Shown here: piece by piece, positions 1 through 9,000 of the stretch
Position numbering within the stretch: the stretch's first letter is position 1
How the letters are laid out: the number at the start of each line of letters is the position of its first letter
Assembly: GCF_057098645.1 (NCBI RefSeq)
Contig: NZ_CM169472.1
Reading direction: 5' to 3' (one strand)
Length of the DNA: 64,000 nt
Program-made: the position numbers

Positions 1-3000
1 AGGGTAATCGGCAGATCGCGTAAGGTGATCTCATCCTGTAGCCAGCCGGAGCTAAAATCGATTTTTGCTTGCGGGAAGCCCGTCGTCGCGCCGCCCGGAT
101 GTTGTTCCTGACGATAATACTCACCGCCATATGTCAGTAAGTGAGAAGCGAAACTGTCGGCAAAGAGAGTGGAACGGTTCTCCAGCCTGGCTCCTTTTGT
201 TATCTGTTCACGATACTCGCCGGAACTCTCCGTGTTTTGCGCATTAATACGGACTTCCGACCAATAAATTTTTGCATCTGCATTTAACCAGTCGTTGCCC
301 TGCGGGGCGAGTTTATAAGAAAGCTGCGCATCGCGTTGAATTGTTGAACGATCAACCATCGGGTTGCTGCTTTCAGAAGCCTCAACGGTCTGCGGATTTT
401 TTGGTTCACGCGCGTCGTTGTTGTAGTAACGCACTAAACCGCTCAGAGACTGGGCTGAATCAATTTGCCAGGTCCCTTTCGCCAGCATGTTATTAATGGA
501 CTCGTCATTCGGCGCGGTTTCACCATTGCTCTGGCGTAAATCACCCCGATCGCGACTGGACCAGGCCACACTACCATCCAGATTTTCAGTTCGCCCAAAC
601 GCGCTCGCGCCTAATCCCAGGCTATGGTCCCCCGTGCCGCCAGTACCAAAGACACGAAAACCACTGCTTTGTCCTTCCTGCAATAAATCTTTTGCATCGA
701 CCGTATCGTAGGAGATCACTCCACCCAGCGCGCCACTGCCATACAGTAATGCTGAAGGTCCGCGAACAATCTCAACACGCTTGATCAGCGCCGGATCGAG
801 AAAAGTGCCATTCAGGTGTCCGGTATCCGTTCCCTGACGAATACCATCGACAAGAACCAGCACGCCGCGATGATCATAGCCACGCATATTTACATCCTGA
901 CCGTTGGTTCGTCCGGTACCATCCAGAGTAATTCCAGGAACATGACGCAGCAGATCGGTGGCTGAAGTAGCCGTTTGATTTTCAGGAGCGGAAGTGTCGA
1001 TGACGCTGACCATCATAGGCGCTTCGAAGGAACTACGGGCATTCCCCGTTGCCGTAACGGTCATGGTTTCAGTAGCAAAAGCAAACGTTGGCAAGGTGGC
1101 AGAAACAGCCAAGGCCAACAAACTCAAACGCAACGAGGTAAATTGCGGACGTGACATAGCGATTCTCCATGAGGAAAATAAAAAATGCTGGCTGCCTGGG
1201 TTAATACCGGGGTGGCTGGCGAAAAATAAATTTATTTAAAATTCAGAGCGATAATATTCGCCGGGTGAGTTTACAGGCGTTTATATCCCATGAAATTGCC
1301 TGATAACTCGGCAATTACGCAAAAGCACGCCCTCTTTGTCAGGCAAAACGATATGCCCCATCAGGAGTGAAGAGAGCTGTGCGTTATCCCTTGCAAATGC
1401 TATGGTTTTGTTATCCATATGGTCGTGTTTTGTTAAATGCAAACGTGATAATGAGAATTATTATCGATCAATTTTTTATGATCAAGTTTTTTTTAACCAC
1501 CATTAACACAATAAACAGGGGGTTATGAAACCTATCCTGCGCCCTGTAAACCACCTTGTTTTTATGGTTATCCCCCCATGCCTCATCACTAAATTTTGTC
1601 GTTAACAGTGATAATTTTTTCTTCTCTTTGCTCTGCAAGCCTCGATATCTCTGGGTTCTCAGCTTTTTCCCGCGATGAAATTTAGTCGGTAACAAGAACG
1701 TTAGCTGACGAAGCATCTTGATAAAAATCAAAAATAAATACGCTTGTAACGCCTTGCGTATTGAATCGACGGTTGTATTTCATATATAACTCAAATGATA
1801 ATCATGATCATTCTCAATTTGATAAGAGTTCTCATATTATGCCAAGGATCATCACCAGGCCGTTTCTTTTTTCCCCACTGACGTTATGTATTTCAGCCGT
1901 GGCCTCTGCCGCGAAGAGCACGGTAAAACGAAAAAAATTGTTTACGGCATTACTGGCTCTTAGCTGGGCTTTTAGCGTAACGGCTGCCGAACGTATCGTG
2001 GTCGCAGGAGGATCGCTGACGGAGCTAATCTACGCGATGGGCGCTGGCGAACGCGTGGTTGGTGTCGATGAAACGACATCTTATCCACCAGAAACCGCCA
2101 AACTGCCGCATATTGGCTACTGGAAACAACTCAGCAGCGAAGGCATTTTGTCACTTCGCCCGGATAGCGTAATTACCTGGCAGGATGCCGGGCCACAAAT
2201 TGTGCTCGACCAACTACGAGCGCAGAAAGTCAACGTCGTCACCCTGCCGCGTGTGCCTGCCACCCTTCAGCAGATGTACGCCAACATTCGCCAACTGGCA
2301 AAAACGCTACAGGTTCCTGAACAAGGCGAGGCGCTGGTGACACAAATCAGCCAACGCATGGAGCGAGTACAGCAAAACGTGGCGGCCAAAAAAGCCCCGG
2401 TTAAAGCCATGTTTATTCTCTCCGCAGGCGGAAGTGCGCCACAAGTTGCCGGTAAAGGCAGCGTCGCGGACGCCATTCTTTCGCTTGCCGGAGCAGAAAA
2501 CGTCGCTCCCCACCAGCAGTACAAAAGCTACAGTGCAGAATCACTGATTGCGGCTAACCCTGAAGTGATTGTCGTAACCTCACAAATGGTCGATGGCGAT
2601 ATTAATCGGCTACGTTCTATTGCTGGAATTACCCACACTGCCGCATGGAAAAACCAGCGCATTATCACCGTTGATCAAAACCTGATTCTGGGAATGGGTC
2701 CGCGTATTGCTGATGTCGTTGAGTCTTTACACCAGCAGCTTTGGCCGCAATAAATGGATTTAAATCAGACGAATGAACGCAAATAACCCCCTGGATCTCA
2801 CGCCACATTTTGCTTTAGACGGTGATCAGCCATTTAAAGACAGGCGCGCCATGATGCCGTTTCGTGGGGCCATTCCAGTTGCCAAAGAGCAACTGGCACA
2901 GACCTGGCAAGAGATGATCAATCAAACGGCATCACCTCGTAAGCGACTGGTTTACCTACACATTCCTTTTTGTGCGACACACTGCACGTTTTGTGGCTTT

Positions 3001-6000: not shown

Positions 6001-9000
6001 ACTGTTAGTGAGCTCACTGCTCGTTGGTGCTGCCGTATCGGTAAGCGGCATTATCGGCTTTATTGGCCTGGTGATCCCGCATCTGATTCGCATGACTACC
6101 GGAGCAAATCACCGCTGGCTAATCCCTTGTTCCGCCCTCGCCGGTGCCTGTTTATTGCTGATGGCAGACACACTTGCCCGCACGCTGGTACAGCCAGCAG
6201 AAATGCCCGTGGGATTATTAACCAGCCTGCTTGGTGGCCCTTATTTTATGTGGTTGATTCTGCGAAATCGGAGGATCACATGATCAGCGCCCAGAATCTG
6301 GTTTATAGCCTTCAGGGGCGGCGTCTGACTGATAATGTCTCGCTGACTTTTCCCGGTGGGGAAATTGTTGCCATTCTCGGCCCTAATGGTGCGGGAAAAT
6401 CTACGCTGCTTCGCCAGTTAACCGGCTATCTTCAACCTGATAGCGGCGAATGTCGGTTGTTTAATAAGCCATTAAATGAATGGTCGATTACTGAACTGGC
6501 GAAACACCGGGCCGTGATGCGTCAAAATAGCCACATGGCGTTTCCATTCAGCGTACAAGAAGTTATCCAGATGGGTCGGCATCCGCATCGTACTGGTAAT
6601 CAGGATAATGAAACAGCACAAATAATGGCGTTATGTGACTGTCAGGCGTTAGCAAACCGCGACTATCAGCAATTATCCGGTGGTGAACAACAGCGCGTGC
6701 AATTAGCGCGCCTGCTGGTGCAACTCTGGGAACCTACTCCCTCACCGAAATGGTTATTTCTTGATGAACCAACTTCGGCGCTGGATATTCACCATCAGCA
6801 GCACTTGTTTCGTTTATTACGCCAGTTAGTTCACGAGCGGCAGTTCAATGTCTGCTGCATATTGCACGATCTAAATCTTGCCGCGCGTTATGCAGACCGT
6901 GTTGTATTAATGCAAAAAGGAAAGGTTATCGCAAATGGTAAACCGCAGGACGTATTGACACAGCAGGCGCTGACAATGCTCTACGGCGCGGATATTACCG
7001 TACTTGAAGATCCTGCCAACCATTCACCACTGATCGTCCTCGATCATTAAAAGCAACAGGAGTACCGCACTGGTACTCCTGCGAATAAATAACTATACAG
7101 ATTAGCTAATTGAAACGCCTTTCACCCCTGCCATACCTTTTAATAATCGCAACAGATCTTCTATCGACGTTGTGGCATGAAGCTGGATATCAATGGCGAC
7201 CACTTCATGATCTTCATTTTCCTGCAACGAAACTAAATCAGTTTTTATTTTTTGCTGCTTAAACCAGTCGAGCATTGATACCGTATTACCGTTCACTAGT
7301 GTCAGCTGTAAATGGTAATTTTTGTTCATCAGGCGGAAGGTTAATTGATGGAAGACTTCCAGCACCAGCAAGGTCATCACTGAACCATAAATACCTAGTT
7401 CGTACATACCGCTGCCAATAACCATACCAATGGCGGCGGTCACCCAGATATCCGCTGCCGTCGTCAGACCTACAATATTTTGGTTACGAACGAGAATGTT
7501 ACCTGCACCGATAAACCCGACGCCCGTCACCACCTGAGCAGCAATACGGCTGGGGTCCAGTCCGACGTGATCTAAAGACAGCACGTCAGCAAAACCATAT
7601 TTCGAAACAATCATAAACAGGGCGCTTCCCATGCCAATTAATACATGTGTGCGTAACCCTGCTCCTTTGCCGCGCATTTGCCTTTCCATGCCAATAGCGC
7701 CACAGGCAATTGCCGCGAGTATAAGACGTATAATAAATTCTGCTGTCATATAAAAATGCAAAAAGGAGCAGCAAGATGGCTCAACTTGCTACTCCTTTTT
7801 ACTTGTACCTCATTAATTCGGCAAGTCATTAGATGCTTGATTTTTGAAGGTATACAAATTTTTCTGCGGGTTTTTCTTACAGTATTCGATCACTTTAGGA
7901 ATTTGAGTGAGATCGGTTTCATTTAAAGTAACGGTATCGCCACCTTTATATACTGTTTCTTCATGCAGCATCCACCATGCAACCGGGGTCATTGCTTTTG
8001 GATTCAGATCAATAAATTCCTGGCAGGTCATATCTTTAGCGGATTCATTGGCTGCCAGCGCAGATTGTGCGTTCACCAGTGACAAAGCCGCTACAGCGCC
8101 CATAAAAATAAACGCTTTACGGAGAGATGAAATATTCATTTTGTAACCCATTCAATATAGAGATTATATATGAACAGGAGGAATAGCTGCTTTTAAAGAA
8201 GATATTCCGGCCTGTTCAATATGCAAGGAAGTACGATGTAACGCATTCCCGGAATTACATATCTTTCTTAATTTTGTCCCATTCGCCTTTAACTTTATCT
8301 TTAAAGTTGGCTTGTTTATCCTGAGTACAAGCCTGAACGATAGCTGGGGTTACGGTTGCAATACCCTGAACATCTAAAACCGCATCTTCTGGTTTATCTT
8401 TGTTGTTCAGCGCTTCAGCAAAACCAACTGCAGTTGGCTGGAAGGATTCGTCCACAGCCAGGAAATCTTCACAGGTCCAGGAGTTGACCGGTTTTTTGTT
8501 ATCAGCTGCTTTTTGCGCATCCGCTGCATTGCTCACAACTGGCAGAAGAAGCAGACCACCAAGAATAACGCCTAATACTTTTTTCATCGTAATATCCTCA
8601 ACTATAAAGTGAAAGAGCCGTCACGAATCAATTTCGACACTGAGGTTATAACCTAGTTTTCTGTATATGTCATGTTGATGGAAAATATCAAAATAAGATA
8701 TTTTTATTTCAATACAATGAGTTACAGATGCATCAGATACTGCAATTAGGAAATTTTTATTAAATCGACTGCATTCTTAGACGCGTTTTTGGCATAGATT
8801 GATAGCAGGGGATTTTCTTCTTAATTTTATAGGGTGGTTCTATGTTATATATAGATAAGGCAACAATTTTGAAGTTTGATCTGGAGATGCTTAAAAAACA
8901 TCGCAGAGCAATCCAGTTTATTGCCGTGCTGCTGTTTATCGTCGGGTTGCTGTGTATCAGTTTCCCGTTCGTCTCTGGCGATATTTTAAGCACAGTAGTG

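Follow-up and report, generated by a model that had tools for sequence, protein, structure and literature searches.

The 64,000-nucleotide stretch analysed here (NCBI RefSeq assembly GCF_057098645.1, contig NZ_CM169472.1; hereafter the window) opens with the chu heme acquisition and utilisation locus of Escherichia coli, known in Shigella as shu. We are practically certain that positions 1-7096 are the right-hand 78% (7.1 kb) of this 9,058-bp locus, which is flanked by dctR and yhiD within the acid fitness island; nothing found contradicts this identification. The identification is of a thoroughly characterised, already known and virulence-associated heme-iron system, to which a putative fusion of a relic receptor start with chuT and a conserved candidate FNR box are modest additions. 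Taken together, these two features would make the right arm of the locus a remodelled form of an operon of the type R-T-W-X-Y-U-V (R, TonB receptor): an in-frame deletion of the receptor gene would have left a ChuT with tandem signal peptides, and the FNR box would place chuTWXY(UV) under combined gating by low iron and anoxia, mirroring the FnrS repression of ChuS. This reading of the right arm comes from sequence comparison, and we hold it tentatively, with slightly less than even confidence.

Positions 1-12000 of the window are about 100% identical to O145:H28-type E. coli chromosomes (strain RM9872: five mismatches in 12 kb), and we infer a phylogroup E-type, O145:H28-like E. coli host, the phylogroup being taken from the matching strains. 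The annotation of the RM9872 genome by the NCBI Prokaryotic Genome Annotation Pipeline (PGAP) gives the order slp, dctR, chuS(-), chuA(-), chuT/shuT, chuW/hutW, chuX/hutX, chuY, chuU/shuU, heme ATP-binding cassette (ABC) ATPase, yhiD(-), hdeB, hdeA, hdeD, gadE and mdtEF. None of the chu open reading frames (ORFs) in the window contains an internal stop, and their coordinates are as given by an earlier annotation made from this DNA alone (the sequence-only reading), in which the receptor gene was described as divergent from the gene for the periplasmic binding protein; ORFs and annotation both agree with that orientation. The same reading called the cluster complete, which is right for the source genome and wrong for the window taken alone, since chuS and the last 275 codons of chuA fall outside it. 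It had also pointed to the left of the window for chuS and the island boundary, and both lie there, about 2 kb leftward in the matching genome, with chuS annotated directly downstream of chuA (L001 6098-7126).

The assignments chuA, chuT, chuW, chuX, chuY, chuU and chuV were each confirmed by curated family models or by near-identity to Chu/Shu structures. Residues 29-385 of ChuA match the ChuA/ShuA structures 9DIR, 9DHE and 3FHH (E from about 1e-232 to 1e-236), and its best family, TIGR01785 (TonB-hemin), stays below the full-length cut-off only because the window edge cuts the gene. ChuW scores 571.6 bits with the equivalog model TIGR04107 (rSAM_HutW, cut-off 400) and carries the radical S-adenosylmethionine (SAM) motif CxxxCxxC as CATHCTFC at residues 67-74; ChuX scores 209.8 bits with TIGR04108 (cut-off 110) and matches the ChuX structure 2OVI (E=4.5e-110); and ChuV, which carries Walker A and LSGGE motifs, scores 394.7 bits with NF010068 (cut-off 261) and matches HmuV (4G1U_C, E=3e-94). 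No NCBIfam model exceeded its cut-off for ChuT, ChuU or ChuY, which were identified via solved structures instead: residues 49-304 of ChuT match ShuT (2R7A, E=3e-160), ChuU matches Yersinia HmuU (4G1U, E=1e-127) and ChuY aligns along its entire length with 5FFQ and 5GUY (E about 1e-133). Some other TonB/ABC system for iron or corrinoids (ferric hydroxamate, ferric citrate, enterobactin or vitamin B12) might be read from the folds that ChuT, ChuU and ChuV share with BtuF/BtuC/BtuD, FhuB/FhuC and FecCDE, and from significant E-values on those NCBIfam models; however, the non-heme transport models remain far below their curated cut-offs (BtuC 283 bits versus 334, FecC 214 versus 396) while the heme models pass, the proteins are near-identical to the ShuT, ChuX, ChuY and ChuA/ShuA structures, the nearest transporter is HmuUV, and the ChuW/HutX/ChuY trio belongs to heme catabolism alone. 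The hydroxamate or citrate system considered as the contrary case in the sequence-only reading is thus excluded by family cut-offs and structure matches, and the probability left to a non-heme function is vanishingly small. Transport of heme and use of its iron would accordingly be expected of these proteins from their near-identity to characterised ones (PMC10114669, PMC9002310, PMC4746246).

By the scheme described for Chu import and for aerobic degradation by ChuS (PMC9002310), TonB-energised ChuA would take heme through the outer membrane, ChuT would ferry it across the periplasm and ChuUV would pump it into the cytoplasm. In the presence of oxygen heme would be broken down by ChuS, and in its absence by ChuW, a class C radical SAM methyltransferase that would open the porphyrin to release iron and anaerobilin; ChuY would then reduce anaerobilin using NADPH, with ChuX as a heme carrier. 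Ring opening by ChuW through a SAM-derived methylene radical and the use of NADPH by ChuY to reduce the resulting tetrapyrrole have been reported (PMC10114669, PMC12670364). Iron gates expression via the Fur boxes of the two divergent promoters, and temperature via FourU thermometers in both leaders.

The proposed fusion concerns the start of chuT. The annotated N-terminus of ChuT, MPRIITRPFLFSPLTLCISAVASAAKST-VKRKKLFTALLALSWAFSVTAA-ERIVV, consists of two tandem signal-peptide-like segments. By BLASTP, residues 1-29 are 62% identical to residues 2-30 of the TonB receptor encoded by the co-linear operon of Citrobacter (E=2e-8), and residues 32-304 are 80% identical to residues 2-274 of the Citrobacter T protein. 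Promoter and leader DNA are homologous between chuT and the co-linear receptor genes up to the ATG, the corresponding start regions being window 1839-1919, L009 3011-3100 and L003 9684-9770, and homology of receptor starts to chuT was found in Citrobacter, Klebsiella, Salmonella and Yokenella. Codon 28 of chuT, presumably the original start of the gene, is ATG in the B2 allele versus ACG in the window, and the signal peptide proper to ChuT would begin at about this codon. A start at the second signal peptide was considered for the present gene and rejected, codon 28 being ACG here and codon 29 GTA, with no start available; the published chuT start at 1839 stands. As judged from these alignments, chuT looks like an in-frame deletion fusion: an ancestral co-linear receptor gene would have lost about 2.06 kb. 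The deletion would have come after or alongside the gain of an unrelated chuA-chuS module, which would have taken over the receptor function. Under the proposed fusion, chuT would have a receptor-like thermometer leader because its promoter and leader descend from the receptor gene; if true, the relic leader explains the chuT thermometer together with the oddly placed Fur box, the two signal peptides and the displacement of an older receptor by chuA-chuS. No paper describing the chuT fusion was found in the literature searched, which is not proof of novelty.

Class I activator sites for FNR (TTGAT-N4-ATCAA) have their centre near -61.5, -71.5 or -82.5 at FNR/CRP promoters. A perfect FNR consensus, taken as a predicted site, lies at 1718-1731, and exact sites of this kind occur twice in the window versus 0.09 expected. 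The shuT start of Shigella dysenteriae was placed 42 nt upstream of the start codon by rapid amplification of cDNA ends (5'-RACE), the shuT Fur site was published as +1 to +19 with three nucleotides off consensus, and the thermometer was demonstrated by mutagenesis (PMC5458455). Transferred to the window, the mapped start gives a chuT +1 at 1797, from which the predicted FNR site is centred 72.5 bp upstream, that is, with class I spacing. The box is invariant in six Escherichia sequences, and in E. coli, Citrobacter, K. oxytoca, Yokenella, Limnobaculum, Salmonella and one further enterobacterium, seven lineages in all, a box that departs from the FNR consensus by no more than one base stands 69.5-73.5 bp upstream of the Fur box, amid flanking bases that differ; the W-first operons of Leminorella and Pectobacterium have no FNR box at the corresponding position. 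The second exact consensus of the window (TTGATAGGAATCAA, 20356-20369) is, by the matching annotation, inside the coding region of ccp (yhjA) and not upstream of it.

From spacing and conservation, the chuT promoter would carry a class I FNR activator site, and chuTWXY(UV) would rise without oxygen. Repression of chuS by FnrS has been reported (PMC9002310). An operon that codes for the oxygen-labile ChuW would be a fitting target for FNR activation, which would then form the complement to FnrS acting against the oxygen-dependent ChuS. If true, FNR at chuT explains the switch between aerobic (ChuS) and anaerobic (ChuW/ChuY) heme degradation in the gut. Two observations limit the case for FNR control of chuT. 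Within Escherichia the block 1700-1838 is 97% conserved, beside a spacer conserved at 68.5%, and it is the entire block that is conserved, not just the FNR half-sites. Moreover, the sole published FNR work found on the locus, a study of avian pathogenic E. coli, reported fnr-dependent expression of chuA and predicted a different, weak site (PMC5481319). The chu/shu regulation papers examined make no mention of the predicted box, and the literature searched yielded no account of chuT or chuW being controlled by FNR, an absence that is not proof of novelty.

The chuA side of the intergenic region is that of the known locus. The thermometer over the chuA ribosome-binding site scores 60.1 bits with RF02597 (shuA_thermo; gathering score 58, E=1.3e-7), and its function has been described (PMC3660397, PMC9002310). 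The chuA 5' untranslated region (UTR), 291 nt as mapped in the enterohaemorrhagic E. coli strain Sakai, is targeted by CyaR, RyhB and Esr41 and is subject to Rho-dependent premature termination (PMC9002310); this length puts the chuA +1 at about 1448, adjoining the Fur box and the -10 element. The Fur box is invariant in six aligned lineages, and the promoter scan found a promoter-like -35/-10 pair for chuA at 1485-1457 on the minus strand. Between the divergent promoters the sequence evolves fast: positions 1449-1699 are 68.5% identical to a divergent Escherichia lineage, versus about 91% for the genes. Across 2,236 genomes the chuA-chuT intergenic region (1158-1838) comes in two classes of allele, at least 96.5% identical versus about 89% identical (B2-type), a divergence far above that of the adjacent genes (2-3%), and the differences cluster in the distal chuA leader and in the spacer. 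A 26-codon ORF in the spacer (1526-1606, plus strand), preceded by a strong Shine-Dalgarno sequence (AGGGGG), was rejected as a gene: a 1-bp indel shifts its length between alleles (18 or 26 amino acids), its ATG is missing in two of the compared loci (L006 and L007), and its E and B2 alleles differ by about seven non-synonymous to three synonymous changes (counted by hand), which looks neutral. The motif AACAGGGGGTTA, just 5' of this ORF, is conserved despite the variability of the ORF itself.

Regarding operon structure, the sequence-only reading had taken ATGA overlaps at chuX/chuY and chuU/chuV as signs of a translationally coupled operon. The chuU/chuV overlap is indeed ATGA (6280-6283); at chuX/chuY the overlap is really a single nucleotide, TGATG, with the chuX stop at 4615-4617 and the chuY start at 4617-4619, and the ATGA string at 4617-4620 does not include the chuX stop. 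The other intercistronic gaps are 19 bp (chuT-chuW), 12 bp (chuW-chuX) and 50 bp (chuY-chuU). The last holds a stable GC-rich hairpin. Of nine lineages folded, eight have a hairpin at this place, though of differing sequence, a pattern that points to an element stabilising or processing the mRNA within an operon. This gap, and a literature that treats chuTWXY and chuUV as separate operons (PMC9002310), weigh against a single unit and in favour of two operons with their own promoters. However, consensus and promoter scans found neither a Fur box nor a promoter-like site in the 50-bp gap, there is no sigma-70-like site or Fur box in or just before it, and the hairpin lacks a T-run and is compatible with segmental mRNA stability inside one transcript; gap and hairpin are also retained in genera where the entire R-TWXYUV set is co-directional, and other papers (one being PMC12670364) write chuTWXYU-hmuV as a single unit. 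Two separate operons are a possible arrangement, and the less probable one; we tentatively prefer one chuTWXYUV transcription unit.

A further alternative is that pathogenic lineages recently acquired the island by horizontal transfer, as an insertion into their acid fitness island. The sequence-only reading had described dctR and yhiD as neighbours in K-12 and the island as absent there, and in MG1655 the two genes indeed converge across an otherwise empty gap of 41 bp. The island measures 9,058 bp (window -1961 to 7096) and takes the place of a 35-nt filler in K-12. At the left junction, homology stops one base past the dctR stop; at the right, K-12 homology restarts at 7097, 5 bp past the yhiD stop, and with a K-12 query, alignments to chu+ genomes begin no earlier than query position 157-159. 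The island end given earlier, 7050, was too short, as island-specific DNA reaches 7096, 46 bp beyond the chuV stop. Within it, 5 nt past the chuV stop, lies a hairpin with a T-run (7056-7082) that is conserved in the B2 allele and in a divergent lineage. It reads as the yhiD terminator, and no other good hairpin of intrinsic-terminator type follows yhiD; termination of yhiD in chu+ strains therefore relies on sequence that K-12 lacks. The chuA-chuT intergenic region is present in 2,236 of 5,426 complete E. coli genomes, in 2,232 of them contiguous with the yhiD-to-mdtE flank, and an empty K-12-type site is found in 3,179. The locus is a clean two-state polymorphism at a single site, which fits the use of chuA as a standard phylogrouping marker (Clermont scheme). 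One rearrangement was seen in the genome WP4-S17-ESBL-03 (L005 3231-4412), where IS26 stands beside a change that removed chuA and the left intergenic part and kept chuTWXYU.

A recent arrival would account for the absence of the island from those 3,179 genomes, K-12 included, and for the unrelated K-12 filler, and the literature calls the locus pathogenicity-island-encoded (PMC9002310). The filler was tried as a remnant of the island and rejected: its 35 nt score 12 against the island, versus a shuffled mean of 11.8. On the other side, the island has a GC content typical of E. coli (50.4%, versus 42-43% for the acid fitness island flanks), neither direct nor inverted repeats of at least 9 nt occur at its ends, and the annotation shows no integrase, tRNA or mobility genes near the locus. 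Divergence between the E allele and the B2 allele (NRG 857C) is similar for island genes (1.4-6.6%) and flanking genes (1.5-3.3%). A species-representative genome labelled E. coli (L006) is 91% identical over 11.4 kb and collinear through the same chuV/yhiD junction, with island (89.8%) and flank (93.1%) about equally diverged from the window. The island is an ancient resident that predates the diversification of E. coli, because a lineage only 91% identical shares the identical junction, and the empty site of K-12 probably arose later, by loss or replacement, rather than being ancestral. Of the sequence-only description, "accessory relative to K-12" therefore survives, while "inserted", in the sense of a recent event, is disfavoured; a recent insertion is unlikely and an old resident likelier. 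Scanning genome contigs with a 32-mer from the chuT leader returned only three loci, all Escherichia-like, one of them filed as a Collinsella metagenome-assembled genome; the stringency was too high for other genera to be reached. The Collinsella-labelled contig (L008) shares 98% identity with this chu region of E. coli, pointing to contamination or mis-binning.

Table 1 Features of the chu locus and its right flank in the window (positions in nucleotides; +, plus strand; -, minus strand;., no strand assigned).
Feature	Position	Strand	Evidence
chuA, TonB-dependent heme/hemoglobin receptor, first 385 of 660 codons	<1..1157	-	PGAP annotation of matching genome, structures
shuA/chuA FourU RNA thermometer over chuA ribosome-binding site	1155..1186	-	Rfam RF02597 shuA_thermo
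chuA 5' UTR, 291 nt	1158..1448	-	UTR length mapped in strain Sakai (PMC9002310)
Fur box, chuA promoter, GATAATGAGAATTATTATC, 17/19 to consensus	1447..1465	.	Consensus scan
Fast-evolving spacer between divergent promoters	1486..1699	.	Alignment to divergent Escherichia lineage
Perfect FNR consensus TTGATAAAAATCAA, predicted site	1718..1731	.	Consensus search
chuT promoter, -35 TTGAAT (1761-1766), -10 TATAAC (1785-1790)	1761..1790	+	Hexamers read by eye relative to RACE start
chuT 5' UTR, 42 nt, with FourU-type thermometer	1797..1838	+	Start site from PMC5458455
Fur box, chuT leader, +1 to +19, 16/19 to consensus	1797..1815	.	Fur scan
chuT/shuT, periplasmic heme-binding protein, annotated length 304 aa	1839..2753	+	ShuT structure
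First 27 chuT codons, candidate relic signal peptide of deleted co-linear TonB receptor	1839..1919	+	BLASTP and upstream DNA homology
chuW, radical SAM methyltransferase (anaerobilin synthase; anaerobic heme ring opening)	2773..4110	+	TIGR04107, motif
chuX/hutX, cytosolic heme carrier	4123..4617	+	TIGR04108, structure 2OVI
chuY, NADPH-dependent anaerobilin reductase	4617..5240	+	Structures 5FFQ, 5GUY
GC-rich intercistronic hairpin, chuY-chuU gap, no T-run	5246..5270	+	Folding, minimum free energy -17.5 kcal/mol
chuU/shuU, heme ABC transporter permease, GTG start	5291..6283	+	HmuU structure 4G1U, PGAP name
chuV (hmuV), heme ABC transporter ATPase	6280..7050	+	NF010068, HmuV structure 4G1U_C
Terminator-like hairpin and T-run, 11-pair stem, tail TGCTTTTAAT, reads as yhiD terminator	7056..7082	-	Terminator scan
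Right island boundary	7096..7097	.	Three-way and four-way junction alignments
yhiD, right flank of locus	7102..7749	-	Annotation of matching genome

Further observations were made in the neighbourhood of the locus. On the plus strand between gadE and mdtE, positions 10858-10929 match the Rfam small RNA family ES205 (101.4 bits, gathering score 86). In the matching genome, leftward of the window (L001 1413-4433), dinQ is followed by arsC while neither arsR nor arsB is annotated, and a yhiS-like gene is frameshifted; K-12 instead carries IS5 within yhiS.

Among known systems, the chu locus of E. coli O157:H7 and uropathogenic E. coli and the shu locus of S. dysenteriae have the same genes, order, orientation, site, Fur boxes, leaders and thermometers, and the locus in the window is an allele of chu/shu, its chuA-chuT intergenic region being 99.6% identical to that of O157:H7 and about 89% identical to B2. 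The hmuRSTUV/hemRSTUV locus of Yersinia likewise combines a receptor, a HemS/ChuS-type protein and a T/U/V ABC importer, in an arrangement that we take to be co-directional and without the chuW/X/Y genes of anaerobic degradation. In hutWXZ of Vibrio cholerae the ChuW/HutW radical SAM enzyme is followed by HutX, as in chu, with HutZ where chu has ChuY (PMC10114669), and Pectobacterium has W-X-Y alone, in a W-first operon. Counterparts of the right arm are the operons of the type R-T-W-X-Y-U-V in Citrobacter, K. oxytoca, S. enterica, Yokenella and Limnobaculum, whose TWXYUV genes are orthologous to those of chu (ChuW 76-86% and ChuT 80% identical) and which share with it the promoter layout from FNR box to Fur box, the leader and the chuY-chuU hairpin; one further enterobacterium has a co-directional R-T-W-X-Y set without U-V. 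These R-first operons open with a TonB receptor of 713-718 amino acids, placed directly before T and followed by W-X-Y-U-V, with all genes co-directional. Between the co-linear receptor and ChuA, identity is only about 29%, measured over the plug domain. The R-first operons have neither chuS nor a divergent chuA, whereas E. coli would keep just 27 codons of such a receptor, fused to chuT.

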